This document shows, in pieces, positions 3,976 to 60,621 of a stretch of 64,000 nucleotides of DNA. Source of the stretch: Callorhinchus milii (taxonomy: Eukaryota); assembly GCF_018977255.1 (NCBI RefSeq), contig NW_024704742.1:67520001-67584000 (forward strand), read 5' to 3'. The first letter of the stretch is position 1. Each line of letters begins with the position of its first letter. Made by a program: the position numbers and the translations under genes. The notes below the pieces were generated by a model. The model saw only the letters and a list, made by a program, of their open reading frames with translations. It searched no databases and had not been told where the DNA came from.

Positions 3976-4650
3976 CTGTGTGTGAGTGAGTGAGTGTGTG
4001 TGAGTGAGTGTGTGAGTGAGTGGTGTGTGTCTGAATCACTCTCTCGCTGATCCTGTGTGTGTGTGTGTGTGTGTGTGTGAGTGAGTGAGTGTGAGTGGTG
4101 TGTGTCTGAATCACTCTCTCGCTGATCCTGTGTGTGTGTGTGTGTGTGTGTGTGTGAGTGAGTGAGTGTGAGTGGTGTGTGTCTGAATCACTCTCTCGCT
4201 GATCCTGTGTGTGTGTGTGAGTGAGTGAGTGTGAGTGTGTGAGTGAGTGTGAGTGGTGTGTGTCTGAATCACTCTCTCGCTGATCCTGTGTGTGTGTGTG
4301 TGAGTGAGTGAGTGAGTGAGTGTGAGTGAGTGTGTGAGTGAGTGTGAGTGGTGTGTGTCTGAATCACTCTCTCGCTGATCCTGTGTGTGAGTGTGAGTGA
4401 CTGAGTGAGTGTGAGTGGTGTGTGTCTGAATCACTCTCTCGCTGATCCTGTGTGAGTGAGTGTGTGAGTGAGTGTGAGTGGTGTGTGTCTGAATCACTCT
4501 CTCGCTGATCCTGTGTGAGTGAGTGTGTGTGTGTGAGTGGTGTGTGTCTGAATCACTCTCTCGCTGATCCTGTGTGAGTGAGTGTGTGTGAGTGAGAGTG
4601 TGAGTGGTGTGTGTCTGAATCACTCTCTCGCTGATCCTCTGTGTGCGTGA
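3976..4650. repeat. Composite minisatellite: 9 copies of a constant core separated by variable (GT)/(GAGT) tracts
   Basis: Core gagtggtgtgtgtctgaatcactctctcgctgatcct repeated 9 times. Confidence 0.95.
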
Positions 4651-5255
4651 GTGTGTTTTTTTAAAAAGAAGGAGAGCAAACACACAGCAAAGTGTAGCAG
4701 TGAGAGAGGCTGGTCTTTGTGTTTCCTGATGACAAGGGGAGGAAAGGCAAGTCAGTTTCACCAGGCAAACTTCAGGCCAATCAAAGCCGAGGTGAAACTG
4801 ACAGGCACAGTTGCCTGTTGCCTCGCCAATGCCCCACGCCTGGCCCGCTTATAATAAGCATTCATAATAAATACTACTACTGCTACTGCTGCTACTGATA
4901 ATCCTTGCATTTGATATCTTGCACCTTACCGTGGCGTTGACACGGCTCAAATCGCTTGGATTTTGTGAGCGAAACGCGGCAGCCAAGTTGCACTCGCAGA
5001 CAGTGCCCCGCAGACTGCCGTGGAGTGAGTGGGCCAATTTTAGTTATTTGGGGGCGAATGTTGGCCAGGATTTCAGGAGAGAGAAACTCCCTTCTCTTTT
5101 CGAATAGTGTTGTGGGGTCTCCACTGTCCACCGAAAGACACCCGATTCCTCTCTTCAAAGCTCGTGGCAAGACTTTTTTTAAATCGGTTTGAATATACGC
5201 CTGTGGAAAAACAACAAAGGTAGATTTTTTACATATAGGTTTTATATATATATAC

Positions 5256-5603: not shown

Positions 5604-5821
5604 TATATATATATAGGTAGATTCCCTGTGACTTACACTTGGCATCCTGTAATTCCGTGGAATTGCATAGAATCATAGGTCACCCTGCTTTTTTTTAACC
5701 ATTTTTAAAAACATCTTATTAATGTAATTATATTGAATTACATGGAACGTTACCAGACAGAAACATATTTCATTCCGTCTTCCATACCCCTCTGTTTTTT
5801 TCTCCCTCATATCATTTTGTT

Positions 5822-6032
5822 TTGGTCAACCGGGTGTCTGACACATGTGGAAACCCATCACGATACTTAAAGAGTGTCCAAACCAAACTGAAAATTCTAT
5901 GCATCCCACCTGCACATGGCAATTCCGGATAACTGTTAAAATCCGATGCACATTCTCTCCCTGGAAGGACACATCCTGCTTGGTTAATTCCAGAAAGTAT
6001 TAGGCACAGCTTGGCAAGAGCCAAGGCTTCAG
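5822..6032. repeat. Unclassified ~250 bp interspersed repeat (family X)
   Basis: ccgggtgtctgacacatgtggaaacccatca...ctctccctggaaggacacatcctgctt...taattccagaaagtattaggc recurs at ~21690, 24811 (inverted), 26405, 27217 and 45512. Confidence 0.85.
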
Positions 6033-6049
6033 GACAAGAAAGTTTTTGT

Positions 6050-6368
6050 TGCATTGTTGGAGGTGCCGTCCTTTGATTGAGACTTTAAACTGAAGTCATG
6101 TCAGCCTGTTGTGGTGGATGTTAAAGTTTCCATGGTACTAGGTGAAAAGAGAAGGGAGTTGCTCTCTCCTGGTGTCCTGGCCAATGATCCCCCAAATAAA
6201 ATTGATCATTCACTTCATGGCTGTTTGTGGGACACTGCTGCACACAAATTGACTGCCACATTTTGCTCACAAAATTCACAGTCAATCCACTTTACAGTAT
6301 ATCCTGTGGAGCGCTTTGAAATGTCTCGACGACGTGATAAGGCACTGTATCAAATGCAAAGATTGTTA
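6050..6368 (+). mobile_element. SacSINE1/DeuSINE-like SINE (family B), 5'-truncated
   Basis: ggtggatgttaaagtttccatggtact...gggagtt...ggtgtcctggccaa...ctgtttgtgggacactgctg is the Deu-domain-like segment, followed by the shared tail. Confidence 0.8.
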
Positions 6369-9804: not shown

Positions 9805-10465
9805 GTAGGAACATAGAAACAGGAGGAGGCCATTCAGACCTTCGAGCCTGTTCTGCCATTTAATTAGATCATGGCTGATCTGTACCTCAACTAATCCTTT
9901 CAATTTTAATTTCCCGCTTTCACCCATATCCTTTAATCCCCTGACCTACCCAAACTCTATCAACCTCACTCTTGAAGGTATGGATGGATCGAGCATCCAC
10001 ATCCTTTTTGGGGAGAGAATTCCAGATTTCAACCACCCTTTGAGTGAAAAAAATGCTTCCTGATTTCACTCTTAAATGGCCTGGTTCTAATTTTTAGAAT
10101 ATGCCCCTTGTTTTGGATTCTCCCACCAGAGGAAATAGCTTCTCTGTATCTACCCTATCAAATCCCTTTATCATCGTGAATGCCTCAATCAAATCACCCC
10201 TCAATCTTCTAAACTCAAGGATATACAATCCAAGTTTGCGCAGCCTTTCCTTGTAACTTAACCCTTTTAGGCCTGGTAACATCCCAGTGAGCCTTCGCTG
10301 CACCCCTCCAGGGCCAATATATCTTTCCTGAGATGTGGTGCCCAAAACTGAATGCAGTCTCCAGATGGGGTCTGACTAACGCTCTATACAACTGAAGTTT
10401 CATTTCTTCCCCTTTGTATTCCAGGCCTCGAGATAAAAGCCAACATTCCATTCACCTTTTTGATT
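9805..10465 (-). mobile_element. CR1 LINE 3' portion (ORF2 C-terminus + 3' UTR)
   Basis: ORFs 10215..10451 and 10094..10345 give LQLYRALVRPHLE and VQRRLTGMLPGLKGLSYKERLRKLGLYILEFRRLRGDLIEAF...SKTRG, typical of the CR1 ORF2 end; frameshifted. Confidence 0.92.
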
Positions 10466-14306: not shown

Positions 14307-14540
14307 CTGATAACTCACTAAGCCTGATAATTCACCATCCCTGATAACTCACCATCCTTGATGACTCGCCAACCCTGATAGCTCACCATCCCTGATAACT
14401 CATAATCCTCAATAACTCACTATCCTTGAAAACTCACCAACCCTGATAGCACGCCATTCCTGATAATTCACCAACCCTGATAGCACACCATCCCTGATAA
14501 CTCACCATCCCTGATAAGTCCCTTTCTCTGATAAGTCGTC
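14307..14540. repeat. 17-bp minisatellite (ctgataactcaccatcc) x ~14
   Basis: Tandem units are visible directly; 11 of 14 contain TGATAR. Confidence 0.9.
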
Positions 14541-15599: not shown

Positions 15600-16105
15600 G
15601 TAGAATCATGGAATCCTACAGCATAGAAAGAGGCCATTCGGCCCATCATGCCTGTCCTGACTCTTTAAAAGAGCTACCAACTAGTCCCACTCCTCAGCTC
15701 TTTCTCCATTTCTTTGCAGATTTTTTCTCTTCAAGTACCTATCCTATTCCCTTTTGAAAGTTGTTATTGAATTTGCTTCCACCACCCTTTCAGGCAGTGC
15801 ATTCCAGACCATAACAACTCTCTGGGTGAAAACATTTCTTCTTGTCTCCTCTGGTTCTTTTGCTAATTATCCTAAATCTGTGTCCTCTGGATAGCAACCC
15901 ATCTACCAGAGGAAACAGTTTCTCCTCATAATTTTGAATACCTCTATTAAATTTCTCTTTAACCTTCTTTGCTCTAGGGAGAATATTCCCAGCTTCTATA
16001 GTCTCTCCACATAACTAAAGTCCCTCGTCCACAATCCCTTCACCTCGCTCCTTCCCTCATCCCTGATATCATTCCTGTAAATCTTCTTTGCACCTTCTCC
16101 AAGGT
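15600..16105 (-). mobile_element. CR1 LINE 3' end
   Basis: agaatcatggaatcctacagcatagaaagaggccattcggccc... is the reverse of a CR1 3' UTR with a (ttctatga)-like tail; homologous to 39350, 41167, 49760 and 60890. Confidence 0.85.
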
Positions 16106-16279: not shown

Positions 16280-17930
16280 CCCTCCTCCCTCTCACCCACC
16301 ATCACCTCCATGAAACCCACCACCTGCTGCCTTGACCCCCTCCCTACCAACTTGCTGGTCACCAGCTCCCCCTCCTCTGCCCACTACTGGCTAACGTCAT
16401 CAACCAGTCCCTTTCCTCTGGATCAGTCCATACCTCCCTCAAAACTGCTGTCATCAGCCCCCTCCTCAAAAAACCCTCCCTAGATCCCTCAAACCCCAGC
16501 CACTACCACCCTATTTCTAACCTGCCCTTCCTCGCTAAAGTCCTAGAACATGTTGTTGCCAACCAACTTCGCACACACCTGCTCCTCCCACTACCTCTTC
16601 GAACCCCTCCAGTCCGGTGTCCGCTCTGCCCACAGTACAGAGACTGCACTTGTGAAAGTCACAAACGACATCCTCTCTATCTGTGACCAGGGCTCCCTCT
16701 GCCTCCTTGTCCTCCTGGAACTCTCCACTGCGTTTGACACAGTCGATCACACCATCCTCCTCCACCTTTCCTCAGTCATCCACCTCAGTGGGACCGCACT
16801 TGCCTGGTTCGAGTCCTACCTCACAAACCGCCAGCAGTACATCTGCACAAACAGCTTTTCCTTCTGCTCTCACCCGGTTACCTGTGGGGTACCCCAGGGA
16901 TCCATCCTTGGCCCCCTCCTCTTTCTGATCTACATGTTCCCTCTTGGGGATGTCATCCGTAGACATGGGGTACACTTCCACATGTATGCGGACGACACCC
17001 AACACTATTTTTCCACCTTTCTTTGAGACCCCCAGTCCCCTAATGTTCTGTCAGTCTGCCTGTCAGATCTCAGGGGCTGGATGACCGCAAATTTCCTTCA
17101 GCTGAACGTTGACAAGATGGAAGTCATACTCTTTGGCTCTCGTCAACGTTTAAAATCTCACGGCTCTCACCTCCTCCACCTACCCGACTTCCCCCTAAAA
17201 CTCTCCCAACCTGTACGCAACCTAGGCGTTAGATTCGATCTCCAATTATCCTTCCTCCCCCACATCCGGACCCTTACCAGCACTGCTTTCTTCCACCTCC
17301 AACGGATCGCCCATCTCCACCAATACTTCTCTCCGAAAGTCGCTGAAACCCTGGTCCAAGCCTTTGTCACCTGTTGGCTGGACTACATTAGCACCCTCCT
17401 CACCGGCCTCCCATCCACTACCATCCATAAAATCCAGATTATTCAAAACTCTGCCACTCGCATTCTTACCCGCCCCAAACTCCGCTCCCTGATCACCTCA
17501 GTCCTTGCCAGACTGCACTGGCTGCCTATCCCAGAGAGGATCGACTTCCAAGATCCTCACCCTTGTATTCAAGTCCCTGTACTCCTCTGCATCCCCTACC
17601 TCTCTGACCTCCTCTCTCCTCAGCACAGTATCCATTGCCTTCGTTCCTCCGGGTCTGGCCTCCTCCTCGTCCCCCAAGTCCTCCGCTCCACCCTTGGCGG
17701 CCATGCCTTCAACCACTATGCCCCAAGGCTCTGGAATTCCCTTCCTCACTCACTTTACCTCGCTCTCTCCCTTCCCATTTTCAGGTCTCTGCTGAAAACC
17801 TTTCTTTTAGACCGCGTCTTTGGTCACCTTCCTCCCTGTGGTTCAGTCCCAGGATGCGTTACTGTGAAGCGCTCTGAGATGCCGTCCGGCGTGGAGGGCG
17901 CTATACAAATCCAAGTTGTTCTTGTTGTTG
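16280..17930 (+). mobile_element. L2 LINE, 5'-truncated, degenerate reverse transcriptase + 3' UTR
   Basis: RT motifs PLQSG...HSTETALVKVTND, AFDTVDH, GVPQGSILGPLLF, HMYADDTQ, NFLQLNVDKME, LHWLPI; frameshifts and stops; 3' end gtgaagcgctctgagatg...ggcgctatacaaat(gtt)n. Confidence 0.95.
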
Positions 17931-21689: not shown

Positions 21690-21862
21690 TTGGTCAGCAG
21701 GGTTTCTGAAAACCCATCATCATGCTTAAGAGTATCCAAACCAAACACATCCCACCTACACATGGATATTCCTGTGTATTGGAATGCACACTCTCTCCCT
21801 GGATGGACGCATTCTGCTTACCTAATTCCAGACAGTATTAAGGTGCAGGCTGGCAAGAGCCA
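21690..21862. repeat. Unclassified repeat family X copy
   Basis: catgcttaagagtatccaaacc...ctctccctggatggacgcattctgcttacctaattccagacagtatta. Confidence 0.8.
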
Positions 21863-22897
21863 ATAATTGGGCACTCTGTTGGTGATTTATCAAATGTAAT
21901 GATTATTTATTATCTATATTTGAGATCATGTCTGGCGTTAACAACAACAACAACTTGCACTTATATAGCGCCCTCCACAGAGAGTAGCATCTCAGAGCGC
22001 TTAGCATTCATTATCCAGTATTGGACAATGGTGCTAAGCATTCATTATCTAGTATTCCGGTACACAGTGCAGGAGCGCGCCTACTGCAGGGTCAGGATAC
22101 CTGTTCTTGGGTTTTATATTGTCTTAAAATGTAAGGGTGTGCGGAATTTTAGAGAACAGCCTTAAATTCAGCCATAATTAGGAAGAAGATTTTCTGCAGC
22201 ACTCAAAAAGGAAGAAAACACAATCCTCGGCTTCCAAATTAACAATATTCATACCACTTGATAGAAGGAGGATGCCCTAAGGTGCTTCACATGATGTACT
22301 GCAAAGTACATCAACGCTGTGTTTTTTGGCGAAACCCAGGCAGCCAGTTTGCGCACAGCAATGTCCCACAAACAGCCAGACTGTGGTGAAGGAGAAAGAG
22401 CTTTCTGTTTGAAATTCCTACTCTATTAACAAAGAAAGAAATCAACTGCACACCCCACAGTGATGCCAAGCAGGAAATTAAGCTGCCTCAGATTTGAAGT
22501 GAAATGGTCTTTGACCAGTAAAGTCCAGCTGGATCGAAGCACAGAGGCTTCTAAAGCTGTGTTACTTAGCTTATAATTGCCAACTCCCTGCCTCTGGCAA
22601 TGCAACCTGTTCCTGCCTGATTTACAACTTCTATTTCCTGGGGTTTCACTAAACATCCCTCCTCTCTCTTGCTCTCTCTCCCCATGGGCTTTGCCTGTTC
22701 CATCTCTATCCTTCAGATAAAATTGGTTGTTCAATTCACTTCATGGATGTTCATGGGACACTGCTCAGTGCAAATTGGCTGCCAATCACCTACAATAAAC
22801 GCAGTCATTACTCGTTCCAGTAAAATCCTGTGGAGCACTTTGAGACATCTCAATGACGTAATAAGGCATTGGATCAAATGCAAGGATTAATATTATT

Positions 22898-23260: not shown

Positions 23261-23699
23261 AATATGTCAGCAATGCTTGTTTTTCAGTTTTCACAAATAA
23301 CAGACTGCTGAGCTCACCAAAGCAAAACAACTGTGCGCAAATGTCGTTCGACAAATCCAAATTGAACTCGCAACCATTTGAAATCAGGAATGTCTTCTGT
23401 TTTCTTCCCATTACAAGGGCAGACATTATTTCATAAAAAGAAATGCACCTTCCATGGGCTGAGCTGGCTTCGTTGACGGTGTTGGCTGATCCCACAGAGG
23501 TGGAACAGTTTGTTTAAAAGCAAAAGAAAAAGAGAGAGAAGTTAATTCCAAAAGCACTTCAGACAATATTTCACCATACACCATGCACAAGGAATCTTTG
23601 ATACACAAAGAATCCAGATGAAATGTTGTCGTTTTGGTGCAAGATAGGCATGTGCTTTGAGACATTGTATATATAATACATATATATCTAGGATACATT

Positions 23700-24490
23700 T
23701 CTCACCACATCCCCACCCCAACCAACGTGGCAGCAAGGTGGCCCGCATCTCTCAAACCTCCCTTGGTCTAGCCCCCTATTTCTGTGGACTGTTTCCCCTC
23801 TTTTGAGTACCTCACACTTTACCATCCCTCCTCTCTCTCCCAAATTCTCTTGAGTTTACCGCCCCCCCCATCCCCCCAAACCTCCTGGCTTCTTCCTCAC
23901 AAATCTCTCCTCTCATCTCTGTCCCTTTACAGAAAACGCCCATTCATAAAGGGCAATTTCAACTTCCATCTCGATTCCCCCTGACCCATCTCCCATTACT
24001 TTGCTGCCCTCCTCTCCACCCTAAACTTCACTCTCTATATAAACTCCCCGACCCACATCCGTGGCCATCCCCTCAACCTCATCATCACCCACGGCCTAGA
24101 CATCTCTTATCTGTGCATCATAGACTAGGTCATCTCAAACCCTTCCTTATTTCCCTCTCCTTTCATATCACCCTCCCCTCCTCCAAGCACCCCACCATCT
24201 TTTTCTGCCCACAGAAAAAGTTTCTCCCCGAATCCTTCATAAATGGCATATCAACCTCGGACCTTCTCTCACTCTGGCCTTCCACCCAACCGTCAAACTG
24301 TTACACGATCACCTCTCCTCAACCTTCAATACTCTTGTCCCCTGATATCCAGGTCCATCTCCAAGCCTATCCACTCCCCCCGGTAAAATAGTCATTTCCG
24401 CTCCCTCAAATCCCAAACCAGCTACTCAAGTGCAGATGGCACAAAACCGGCCTCACAGGTCACCACAGCTGTGGCTCGAGCATCCTCATA
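23700..24490 (+). mobile_element. Degenerate L2 LINE apurinic endonuclease region fragment
   Basis: C-rich; translations include IKGNFNFHLD (GDFN motif) and PTHIRGHPLNLII (PT..G..LD motif). Confidence 0.75.
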
Positions 24491-24493
24491 TCA

Positions 24494-24792
24494 TAATAAT
24501 AATAATAATCCTTGCATTTGATAAAGCGCCTTATCACGTCTTCTAGACGTCTCAAAGCACTTCACACAATATACTGTAAAATGTAGTGACTGTATATTTG
24601 TAGGCGAAATACAGCAGCCAATTACGCGCAGCAGTGTCCCACAAACAGTCGTACATTGAAGTGACCAAATTATTATTGTTTTTTTTCTTGAGGAATTATT
24701 ATCAGGCGTGATAATAATCACCCTGCCAAGAATCAAGCCCAGGTCTCTCGCTTGCGAGGCGAGTGCTCTAAACATTGAGCTACAGGACTCCA
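24494..24792 (-). mobile_element. SINE family A, short/deleted variant
   Basis: (aat)n ccttgcatttgat...tgagctacaggactccac. Confidence 0.85.
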
Positions 24793-24810
24793 CCCTAACT
24801 AACGGGTAGA

Positions 24811-25088
24811 GTGGTCCTAGCTGGACAAACAACGGGAAAGCTACCAGACAGTGATATCTCTGGGCTCCCCACACTCAAGCTTTGGCTCTTGCCAACCTGC
24901 GCCTAATACTCTCTGGAATTAGGTAAGCAAGATGCGTCCCTCAGGGTGAGAGAGAGAGAGAGAGAGAGAGAGCACATTCCATCCCAACAGTCTCTCTCTG
25001 GGATTGCCATGTGTAGGTGGAACGTGGGGAAATCTCAACTTGTTTCGAATCTTAAACACGGTGATCGATCTCCGCACATGTCAGACCA
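24811..25088. repeat. Repeat family X copy, inverted relative to the others, with internal (GA)n
   Basis: ttggctcttgccaacctgcgcctaatactctctggaattaggtaagcaagatgcgtccctc is the reverse complement of the family X core. Confidence 0.8.
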
Positions 25089-25134
25089 AAAACAAACATA
25101 ATGCGTGTCATCACTGACCTGGGGTGGGCGGCTG

Positions 25135-25365
25135 GGGAAGTGGGGGGTTGTTACAGGCGGGGAGTGGGGGGGCTATTACAGGCGGGGAGTGGGGGGGTCT
25201 GTTACAGGTGGGAGTGGGGGTCTGTTTCAGGTGGGGAGTGGGGGTCTGTTACAGGCGTGGGGTGGGGGTCTGTTACAGGCGGAGGGTGGGGGTCTGTTGC
25301 AGGCAGGGAATGAGGGGCTGTTTCAGGCGGGGAGTGAGGGGCTGTTATGGCCGAGCGAGTGGAGG
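25135..25365. repeat. G-rich ~23-25 bp minisatellite (gttacaggcggggagtggggggtct)n
   Basis: About 9-10 tandem units, immediately 5' of the CALHM1-like acceptor. Confidence 0.9.
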
Positions 25366-25397
25366 TGTTAGCTCCGGTGTGTGCCGTGTTGTGGCAG

Positions 25398-25602
25398 GCG
25401 CTGGGCTGGTGCTTCGTGCTGGTTATGACGGTGTTGGCGTTCCTGGAGAGCTGTGTGCCCATGCTTCACGCAGATGGCCTTCCTGAAGACCAAGTACTGG
25501 TCACGTTACATTGACATTGAGCGGCGATTGTTTGAGGAGACCTGCACCACGCACGCCAAGAGCTTCGCCAAGGACTGCGTCCAGAGATTCTTCGAGGGGA
25601 TG
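25398..25602 (+). pseudogene. CALHM1: CALHM1-like (calcium homeostasis modulator) last-exon fragment, frameshifted and 3'-truncated
   Basis: After gtggcag| it reads [16 protein letters not shown], then a lone G at 25446 (2-nt deletion), then [52 protein letters not shown]. This matches recalled human CALHM1 [69 protein letters not shown]. L2 sequence starts at ~25627 and no exon-1-like sequence is seen. CALHM3 is not fully excluded. Confidence 0.88.
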
Positions 25603-25626
25603 GGGGAGGGGGTGTGTGGGGGAGTC

Positions 25627-26155
25627 TCTCCCTCAGACTCACCAAATCCCTGCGCAATTTAGGTGTCAGGTTCAATCCCCAGCTTTCCTTTCTACCACGC
25701 ATCCATTCCCTGACCAGGACTGCTTTTTCCACCTTCATCACATTGCCCACCTCCGTCCATACCTCACAACCGACACAGCTGAAATCCTTGTCCACACCTT
25801 CATCACTTCCCAGCTGGACTATTCCAATGCCCACCTCGCTGGTCTCCTCAGCTCCTCCATACACAACATGTGACTAATTAAAAACTCCACCGTCCAGATA
25901 CTCACCCGCATAAAACTCCATACCCCATCACACCAGTGCTTGTCAGGCTCCACTGGCTCTCAAATGTCTCACTCATTTCCAAATCCCTTCATGCCCTCAC
26001 ACCTACTTACCTATCTGATCTGCGTACCATCCATCTCCCCACATCCATTACCCCACCCGCTGCCTCCGCTCAGCTGGCTCCGGCCACCTGCTTTGCCCCT
26101 CGTCCCCTCTGCTCCACCATCGGTGGCCGTGCCTTCAGCCACTACACTCCAAATT
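25627..26155 (+). mobile_element. L2 LINE 3' RT fragment
   Basis: [33 protein letters not shown] and LVHTFITSQLDYSNAHLAGL; homologous to 17190-17730. Confidence 0.9.
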
Positions 26156-26404
26156 ATTTGACCTTGAGGTCTAATGTGTGGGTTACGTTTAGGCGTATAT
26201 CCGTTAGTATTTGCACCACCATCTCCTCTCCCTCCCCTGCTCCACCCCTCTCCACCCCACCAATCTCACTGCTGATATCTGTGAAGCTCAGTCACAAGTA
26301 TAGAATCTCGTCAATCTTGTCATTTGACTTGTGGGAGCAGGACCGAAAACCTTAACCAAACCAAAAGCTCAGAGTAAAACCATGAGGCTGGGAGACGAAC
26401 GCAG

Positions 26405-26595
26405 TAACCAACACCGTGGTTAAGAGTATCCAAACCAGACTGAGAATTACACGCGTCCCACACGTAAATGCAAATGCCCGTATCTGGAATAGAATGCGCA
26501 CTGTCTCCCCGGAGGGACGCACCCTGCTTACCTAAACCCAGAGAGTATTCGGCACAGACTGGCGAGAGGCAAGGTTTGGGGCCCCAGAGTGTGCC
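26405..26595. repeat. Repeat family X copy
   Basis: ggttaagagtatccaaaccagactgagaatt...ctccccggagggacgcaccctgcttacctaa. Confidence 0.75.
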
Positions 26596-27216
26596 TCCGT
26601 CAGATTGTTTGACACGGCTGTTTGTGGGACACTGTTATGCGCAATTGTCTGTCGCGTTTCGTCCACCAAATATACAATCAATTCACTTTACAATATATTC
26701 TATGAAGCGCTTTGAGACGTCTCAAAGACCTGATAAGGCGCCATATCAAATGCAAGAATTATTATTATTATGATTATTATTGGCCGTATCTGGAATATTG
26801 TGAATTTCTAAATTTCAGCAACTTTAGATCAAATCAGTTTAGTGGTCTTAAGCAAACAATTGACAAATATTGTCTATTGTGTTAAGGTGCACATTCTCGA
26901 CTGATTTTTTGGTTGGTGCTATCTACCCAACATGGACCTAAGTCACACAAACTCTTTGTCTGCACTGAGGTAGCTGATATCAGCCACCGTAAACTTTCCT
27001 CTTTCAGCAGCTCACCTACTGATAGAACTTTTCCTCTCTCATATGTGATAATTGTTGGCATGTGACAATTAATATTGGTGATCAGTTTGGAATATGATAA
27101 TTATTACCTGTGCTAATTGTTGAAATGCAATAATTATCAACTCTGCTATTTGTTGAAAGTGCTCCTCAATATTTCTATTTGCCTGTTTCTTAGTGAAATT
27201 ATAATTTTTTGGGGGG

Positions 27217-27612
27217 GTCAGCCGGGTGTCTGACACATGAGGAAACCCATCACCATGCTTACGCGTATCCAAACCAAACAAAGTTTCATGCACCCCACCT
27301 ACACCCCACCTACCTCTCTGCCCTCCCTCATCCCAACCCTGCCCCCCATGCTCAGGTCCTGATCCCCGACTATTCAGCGCTTTGGGACGTCCTCCAGACA
27401 TGAAAGGCGCTTTACAAATGTAATTTTGTTGTTTGTTGTACACATGAAAATTCCAGTGATAGATTGTTGCAAGGGAATGATCATTCACTTCCTGGAGGGA
27501 TGCATCCTGTTTACCTAATTCTGTAAAGTATTAGGCGCAGGTTGACAGGAGCTTGGGGACTCCAGAGTGTGCGTTGGGGTACTGCTGGAGTTTCACCAGC
27601 TAAAGCCACATA
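27217..27612. repeat. Repeat family X copy split by an L2 3' tail fragment
   Basis: gtcagccgggtgtctgacacatgaggaaacccatcaccatgctt at 27218; resumes ~27487 with cctggagggatgcatcctgtttacctaattc; L2 tail ~27310-27440. Confidence 0.75.
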
Positions 27613-28489
27613 CCTTGCCATTGATAATGAATTTGTAACAATAAAATAGACTAGAGGATGTTTTAGCATTGCATGGGAACTTGCCTCTGTGCCAATTCCT
27701 TAAATATAAGAACATAATTCAGGAATATCTGTCACGCACAGTAGAACAGTAACCAAGATTCACATCTGTTGGGTACATTAGTCACTGAATACCATGTAAT
27801 CCCATATTCTTGCTCATGCTTTTAATTCCATGCAATGATATCATTCTCCCAAGAGGCATAGCTGGGAGGTTGTCCAAGAATGGATCTTGGATGGGATTAG
27901 AATATTTGGTTGCTGAAAGTTTATCACTATTAGATATATTTTGTGTCAGCCTGGCTCAGTTTGTAGCATTTTCGCATTTTGAGTCAGAAGGTTGTGAATT
28001 CGAGCCCCACATCAGGACTTGGAACCCATATAGTTCAGGATGACTTTCTGTGCAATGCACAGGGTGGGGGCGGGGGGGGAATGACCTGCATTGTTAATCC
28101 CTACTCTACAATGCGCCACCTCCGCTCAGCTGGCTCTGGCCTCCTGCTTGTCCGTAGTCCCCTCTGCTCCACCATCGCTGGCCGTACTTTCAGCTGCTAC
28201 ACCTCAAAAATTTGGAACTCTCTCCCTCAATCCCTTGGCCTTGCCTCCCCCTTCCCCATTTTCACACCTGAAGACCTTCCTCTTCGACGGTGCTTACAGT
28301 CACCTTCTCCCTCGCCTGAGTGAACAACAGCAACAAATTATATTTTTATAGCACCCTTCATGTCAGGAGGATGTCCCAAGGTGCTGAGTGAAGAGCACTA
28401 TACAAATGAAAGTTGTTGTTGTTGAATCTCTCTCTGGAAGCCACATCTTACCCACGTTGAGAAGCCCAGGGTCCTGGCTTCAAAATGTA

Positions 28490-60429: not shown

Positions 60430-60621
60430 GTTCCTTGCTACTCGTACGGACAGAAGCTATCGAAGCTGGCGATCCTGCGGATAGCATGTAATTACATCCT
60501 GTCCCTGGCCACACTGGCAGACATGGACTACAGTTCCGACCACGGCAACATGAGTTTCTCTGACTGTGTGGAGCAATGCACCAGGACGTTGCAAGCGGAG
60601 GGCAGGTCAAAAAAGAGGAAG
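60430..60621 (+). CDS. ATOH8: Atonal bHLH transcription factor 8, internal coding exon (exon 2)
   Basis: Bounded by ttacag|GTT and AAG|gtgagt; 192 bp, phase 0/0. Translates to VPCYSYGQKLSKLAILRIACNYILSLATLADMDYSSDHGNMSFSDCVEQCTRTLQAEGRSKKRK, nearly identical to the recalled vertebrate ATOH8 bHLH loop/helix 2 and C-terminus (human VPCYSYGQKLSKLAILRIACNYILSLARLADLDYSADHSNLSFSECVQRCTRTLQAEGRAKKRK). ORF 60523..60942 is in this frame. Confidence 0.97.

Follow-up and report, generated by a model that had tools for sequence, protein, structure and literature searches.

A frameshifted fragment of the CALHM1 last exon upstream of ATOH8 exon 2 in Callorhinchus milii, probably a dispersed partial duplicate

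We analyzed 64,000 nucleotides (64 kb) of the Callorhinchus milii genome, positions 67,520,001 to 67,584,000 of contig NW_024704742.1; this whole stretch is called the window, and its first letter is position 1. Positions 25398-25602 of the window code for 16 and then 52 residues of the last exon of CALHM1, split over two reading frames, which is about a fifth of the CALHM1 protein. CALHM1 is the channel through which taste cells for sweet, umami, and bitter release ATP. We take the 16-codon part to be transmembrane helix 4 (TM4) and the 52-codon part to be the end of TM4 and the C-terminal helix. The features of the locus are as follows.

24482-24793, minus strand: tRNA-headed SINE, CmiSINE-like by description (PMC5499810), with an Rfam tRNA match at 24718-24789
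24800-25100, minus strand: copy of a dispersed repeat present in at least six copies in the window
25110-25134, plus strand: approximate start of the foreign single-copy DNA, placed by a depth drop in run X1 and by the end of the dispersed repeat near 25100
25135-25347, plus strand: G-rich minisatellite with a 24-nt unit in 8.8 copies (TRF score 252)
25348-25397, plus strand: intron-like G/T-rich end including the CAG, with no match to exon-1 codons -10 to -4
25395-25397, plus strand: acceptor-like CAG, read directly before the CALHM1 piece
25398-25445, plus strand: CALHM1 last exon, codons 1-16 (Pfam profile positions 180-201 of 252; 15 of 16 residues as in Pristiophorus CALHM1, P0006)
25446, plus strand: frameshift, a single base outside the codons between the two reading frames
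25447-25602, plus strand: CALHM1 last exon, the next 52 codons in the second frame (Pfam, PDB, and shark CALHM1 matches)
25603-25625, plus strand: G-rich link of 23 nt, a divergent exon continuation or filler
25626-26153, plus strand: internal LINE piece from after the reverse-transcriptase domain, without a 3' tail, 68-74% identical to copies at 17190 and 56552
about 26395-26600: inverted counterpart of the dispersed repeat (71-nt arms, 82%)
60430-60621, plus strand: ATOH8 exon 2, encoding the second half of the bHLH domain (Pfam HLH, 2.2e-6), with a phase-0 acceptor and a strong donor

Judged by its sequence, the fragment is CALHM1 in origin, rather than CALHM2 or CALHM3. The Pfam family Ca_hom_mod (PF14798) matches it with an E-value of 2.2e-16 over profile positions 200-250 of 252; the score is 60 bits, where the cut-off is 25. 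Solved CALHM1 chains in the PDB match the fragment with an E-value of 6.9e-24. The proteins most alike to the 52-residue part are shark CALHM1 proteins, with 83-85% identity (100 of 100 candidates passed). Over all 68 residues, 58, 57, and 56 are identical to CALHM1 of Pristiophorus (P0006), Heptranchias (P0008), and Cetorhinus (P0003), respectively, compared with 34-36 for four CALHM3-type regions; proteins named CALHM2 are 34-38% alike to the fragment. In a phylogeny of the kind proposed by a preliminary description of the window, built from 29 of the 144 CALHM1 regions and four CALHM3 regions, the fragment falls within CALHM1 near the sharks on a long branch (0.27), with support of at most 62 at nearby nodes, and the CALHM3 regions are set apart with support of 100. 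These results bear out the CALHM1 identity given in that description, and its layout of a CAG, 16 codons, a leftover base, and 52 codons in another frame is correct. An ancient ohnologue or a relic of CALHM3 was also considered and is ruled out, as the fragment is too near shark CALHM1. All ESM Atlas scores are under 0.8. No whole two-exon frame with four helices and a tail is present: the frame is shifted, and neither exon 1 nor the C-terminal tail of CALHM1 was found elsewhere in the 64-kb window by tblastn and HMM searches, for which the queries were CALHM1-like proteins over 300 residues and an HMM built on them.

The start of the fragment coincides with the conserved CALHM1 exon boundary and phase, which it shares with shark CALHM1 (Pristiophorus, Heptranchias, and Cetorhinus). 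Unlike shark CALHM1, it is partial and frameshifted, carries four novel residues, and lies away from the CALHM1/CALHM3 cluster. Open frames in other genomes leave exon 1 or enter the last exon at the same point (P0304, P0305, P0318), which confirms an earlier statement that the fragment begins where the last exon begins. The likeness to CALHM1 stops at this boundary or at most 9 bases beyond it. To encode exon-1 codons -10 to -4, the upstream DNA would need 13 base changes, compared with 10.1 on average for 1216 random CAG sites. Because these codons match no better than random CAG sites do, this DNA does not derive from exon 1, in agreement with the preliminary description, and an intron-bearing copy is therefore more probable than a retrocopy that was cut at most 9 bases from the exon junction. 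A single change brings codons -3 to -1 into agreement with exon 1, as it does at 22% of the 1216 CAG sites. The CAG may be either an intron acceptor or the exon-1 Gln codon, since Ser-Gln closes exon 1 in all 126 CALHM1 proteins examined, which were chosen by that pattern. The acceptor CAG of the preliminary description is thus present, but it does not by itself prove an intron. An intron-exon boundary appears to be retained as in an unprocessed pseudogene, and we infer that the upstream DNA is of intron origin.

The locus itself is real. In sequencing run X1, a single 680-letter contig covers 24991-25694 and spans the minisatellite, the exon piece, and the LINE joint. As one public contig crosses both junctions, the misassembly considered in the preliminary description is not what we see. 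Compared with the window, the contig has five other letters and 26 gap letters, with a net loss of 24, and it is 24 letters shorter over the minisatellite stretch, as expected of one unit fewer. If gaps are counted as letters, 25 are omitted and one is inserted in X1; the count permits one added letter at most, so that X1 cannot hold both bases that the preliminary description read as deleted at 25446. For X1, we take the frameshift from this gap count and not from the letters themselves (17 indel rows lie outside the listing), and the break there may be a one-base loss. Within the 205-base exon piece, X1 and the window differ at three positions, two silent and one replacing Val with Ala. X1 may come from the same sample as the window, which would weaken its independence; it does differ at the five letters above, and its depth is about 10. 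Four of 24 runs were compared over 24975-25760 at 82% likeness. X1 has no second copy over the exon, and X7 (organism B), X10 (organism C), and X17 (organism A, presumably RNA) are blank over 25218-25568; since contigs show presence only, these three were counted neither for nor against any reading. Copies in relatives may fall near the 82% limit, and the record filter drops some entries.

The fragment sits in a foreign position. ATOH8 exon 2 (89-95% identical to ATOH8 proteins) is on the same strand and has the same acceptor phase, as the preliminary description stated. Its placement inside an ATOH8 intron holds in that the fragment lies upstream of exon 2; exon 1 lies outside the window, where 120 ATOH8 proteins used as tblastn queries gave no match to it, and a location within ATOH8 intron 1 is probable. 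Pfam was run on the 300 most single-copy of 366 frames chosen from 841 open frames, and the matches are ATOH8, the CALHM1 fragment, two reverse-transcriptase pieces, and one sub-threshold match, with no further gene upstream of ATOH8 exon 2. If 1-60429 is geneless, ATOH8 intron 1 would be longer than 60 kb. The first 500 bases of the window have a CpG observed/expected ratio of 0.76 and are perhaps the tail of an exon-1 island. There is no second CALHM match in the 64 kb, neither CALHM3 nor CALHM2. In eight of eight elasmobranchs with both contig sizes given, CALHM1 and ATOH8 are on separate chromosome-size contigs (for example, 53 Mb and 199 Mb, respectively, in Heptranchias), and CALHM1 shares a contig with CALHM3 in four of four. 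One lizard carries the two genes together on a 242-Mb contig (P0227, P0165). The view that the fragment lies away from the CALHM cluster is therefore upheld. Among the public models, P0001, P0221, and P0271 are CALHM3-CALHM1 fusions (gar, Metynnis) or have a repeated CALHM3 last exon (Pristiophorus), probably through annotation read-through between neighbors.

The single-copy DNA extends over about 25110-25625 and consists of 25 bases, the minisatellite, 50 G/T-rich bases, the exon piece, and the 23-base link. At 25110, the depth in X1 falls from repeat level (at least 134) to about 10. The minisatellite has no second copy within the 64-kb window and is probably part of the donor's intron. G-rich words like those of 25137-25217 are deep in the run of organism B (up to 536) and low in that of organism A, and this read depth suggests that arrays related to the minisatellite occur elsewhere in relatives' genomes. 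If it continues the exon, the link would correspond to a region in which CALHM1 proteins are variable, after residue ~253. A minisatellite unit was tried as the source of the link and rejected, as 77% of shuffles score equally.

On the right, the fragment abuts the LINE piece, which has the same orientation, and the two overlap by 2 bases. We take this LINE to be L2-type. The copies at 17190 and 56552 adjoin RVT_1 matches, and relatives of the piece continue on unlike sequence at 25626. No rest of the CALHM1 last exon was found beyond it by tblastn and HMM. The preliminary description had the exon truncated by an L2: a LINE does adjoin at 25626, but with no exon remainder behind it, it is not seen to be what cut the exon. 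Farther left, the plus-strand stretch 23690-24480 is pyrimidine-rich and single-copy, and by eye its frames look like the decayed remains of a LINE endonuclease, in colinear order with the piece at 25626; one old LINE as host would make the segment an insert, and Pfam matched 0 of 5 frames there. Pieces of a second LINE family, presumably CR1-like, lie at 9953-10375, 15741-15848, 41951-42058, and 49752-49862 and were met via a bird protein model whose tail derives from a repeat. The dispersed repeat is ~280 bases long (5810-6090, 21690-21900, 24800-25100, 26395-26600, 27200-27620, and 45500-45790) and very abundant in all four runs examined, and two inverted copies flank the CALHM1 piece. CmiSINEs of Callorhinchus milii are described as having tRNA heads (PMC5499810); the window is rich in SINEs of this kind, ARAGORN calls tRNA-Ala on four of five such SINE heads in it, and these heads are the only matches of Rfam and ARAGORN. 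Tandem arrays occur at 3976-4653 (67-81-nt units on GT/GA repeats with a constant core), 1106-1792 (39-nt, AT-rich), and 2787-2901 and 14307-14517 (17-nt).

The fragment shows the disabling changes and the lost constraint of a pseudogene: the frameshift, a stop after 38 codons, and changes in 5 of 38 near-invariant columns. Four of its residues are absent from all 144 CALHM1 regions, among which 116 have no private residue, 20 have one, and eight have more (three of these being poorly aligned tails). The decay amounts to 7 base changes at 160 replacement sites, or 4.4% (95% range 1.8-9.0%). With a substitution rate of 1.0-1.1e-3 per site per million years (PMC5499810), the fragment would be at most ~40 million years old (range 16-90). 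This age is an upper bound because, measured against 15 close proteins, rays (5-7) and the coelacanth (5) carry about as many private residues as the fragment (6; sharks 0-2), and part of the apparent decay may be lineage change. The fragment would thus be younger than the SINE peaks at 12.6-17.2% and than the split from Chimaeridae 187 million years ago (both PMC12952989). The CpG observed/expected ratio is 0.79 in the fragment, 0.39 in the window, and 0.67 in the working ATOH8 exon, so it says little on age. The recent origin suggested in the preliminary description is thus consistent with the low decay, while its argument from dense CpGs is weak. Most likely the fragment is dead and does nothing.

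We consider it likely that part of CALHM1, with intron sequence attached, was duplicated to this dispersed site and is now dead. Some 0.5 kb (25110-25625) would have been copied from a GC-rich parent, comprising the end of an intron with the minisatellite and the first ~205-228 bases of the last exon. It would have landed among repeats on a large chromosome, probably inside ATOH8 intron 1. The simplest routes would be a DNA patch at a break or the leftover of a longer duplication. The copy here would never have included exon 1 or the C-terminal tail, and the frameshift and several changes at invariant residues would have followed. The fragment has a GC3 of 0.84; this and the G-rich minisatellite fit a donor on a small GC-rich chromosome or at a chromosome end, where GC and simple repeats are reported to be high (PMC10620051). 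This copying route is putative, as is an intact parent elsewhere in the genome. Fragments of unprocessed (duplicated) pseudogenes, and templated insertions where DNA has broken, are a recognized class. The fragment resembles them in its kept boundary, disabling change, missing tail, lack of a target duplication, and short joint overlap; it differs in that its parent is not located and the flanking intron is unmatched.

Neither a spliced joint, a poly(A) tail, nor a convincing target duplication was found around the fragment, which agrees with the preliminary description in that the hallmarks of a spliced retrocopy are absent; its further point, a duplicate or transduction made at the DNA level, is at most probable, since DNA and unspliced RNA as templates are inseparable without the parent. 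An RNA-templated copy through the LINE machinery, from an unspliced CALHM1 transcript by template switch or from a spliced mRNA cut at most 9 bases from the junction, is a reading we regard as unlikely. The shared sense and 2-base overlap with the LINE piece would suit it, as would the three upstream codons that fit exon 1, but that fit is as common at CAG sites as noted above, a cut so near the junction is improbable, and the LINE piece is internal, with no 3' tail, poly(A), or target duplication. LINE template-switch chimeras such as U6-L1 (PMC5499810) likewise have host sequence fused to the 5' side of a LINE piece of matching orientation; here, unlike in U6-L1, the LINE piece has no 3' end, there is no target duplication, and the host part is intron plus exon. 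The intact LINE 3' end and the single duplication around both parts that mark a template switch are thus absent, although later deletion could hide both. If the RNA-templated route is true, the fragment would still be dead, and the route alone would differ. Transport as cargo of a composite element, with the inverted repeat copies at 24800-25100 and 26395-26600 moving the enclosed segment, seems very improbable. These copies do bracket the minisatellite, the fragment, and the LINE piece in inverted order, but they are 81% alike whereas the left one is 84-88% alike to other copies, the repeat is common in the window, no target duplication is seen, and the right end is cut by a SINE. Compared with these, a dispersed partial duplicate remains the reading we favor.

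Other rivals concern what the fragment is rather than how it came. That the locus is an assembly artefact, or that a sequencing error disguises a real nested CALHM1 gene, is hardly credible: G-rich DNA is prone to errors and the frameshift is deduced from counts, but the independent X1 contig crosses both junctions, the 25 kb upstream are without exon 1, the C-terminal tail is missing, and invariant residues are changed. The preliminary description also saw a possible cryptic exon giving an ATOH8 chimera or a nonsense-mediated decay (NMD) isoform. Such a use by ATOH8, whether as a cryptic exon, a poison exon, or an alternative last exon, has very little to recommend it, and a chimera or regulated NMD form is unlikely from the splice signals. 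The shared strand, the kept phase-0 acceptor, the probably intronic position, and a variant poly(A) hexamer at 25877-25882 speak for it. Against it, the acceptor at 25397 is average (10 of 20 pyrimidines, as many as at 59% of 1772 YAG sites, compared with 13 for the ATOH8 acceptor), no branch-point motif was found upstream of it, and no donor within 400 bases scores above 1.8 bits, compared with 8.0 for the ATOH8 donor (simple counts and a donor matrix). A usable pair of acceptor and donor is therefore lacking; moreover, the frame from 25398 ends at 25512 after 38 codons, of which only 16 are CALHM, one of the three window/X1 differences in 205 bases is a replacement, and ATOH8 exon 1 is not seen in the window. 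The remaining rival is that nothing else of CALHM1 survives in this lineage, the cluster gene having been lost after the copying, which we think quite unlikely. No holocephalan CALHM1 appears among the 100 proteins matched, the 120 listed of 329, or the 20 clusters examined, and sharks, rays, lungfish, and coelacanth are present among those matches. However, no holocephalan ATOH8 appears among the 120 listed of 570 either, though the window encodes ATOH8; since this control also lacks holocephalans, such protein searches cannot show that the parent is absent, and the plain reading is that it is present but unseen. A long-read assembly of the elephant shark is reported to contain 93.1% of single-copy genes (PMC12952989), elephant-fish T1R6-2/T1R4 to respond to amino acids (PMC10781636), and mammalian CALHM1/3 to be essential downstream of T1Rs (PMC12703716), all of which argue against loss. 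We found no paper linking CALHM1 to chimaeras in the open-access literature, and the word 'calhm' is absent from one supplementary file each of PMC12952989 (a short file) and PMC3964593. As the decay of the fragment is low, an intact CALHM1 would have existed long after the 187-million-year Chimaeridae split. If the loss is true, the fragment would be the only CALHM1 fossil, the loss would have happened no more than a few tens of millions of years ago, and a jawed vertebrate with working T1R receptors would signal through a channel other than the CALHM1/3 of mammals.

If the fragment is a dispersed partial duplicate, as we favor, its import is likely small: another dead piece of a gene among the many repeats of an intron. 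A tblastn match at this locus should not be taken for the CALHM1 orthologue. The fragment is also the only holocephalan-type CALHM1 sequence that we met, and it may serve as a probe for the parent gene in an unassembled GC-rich region.
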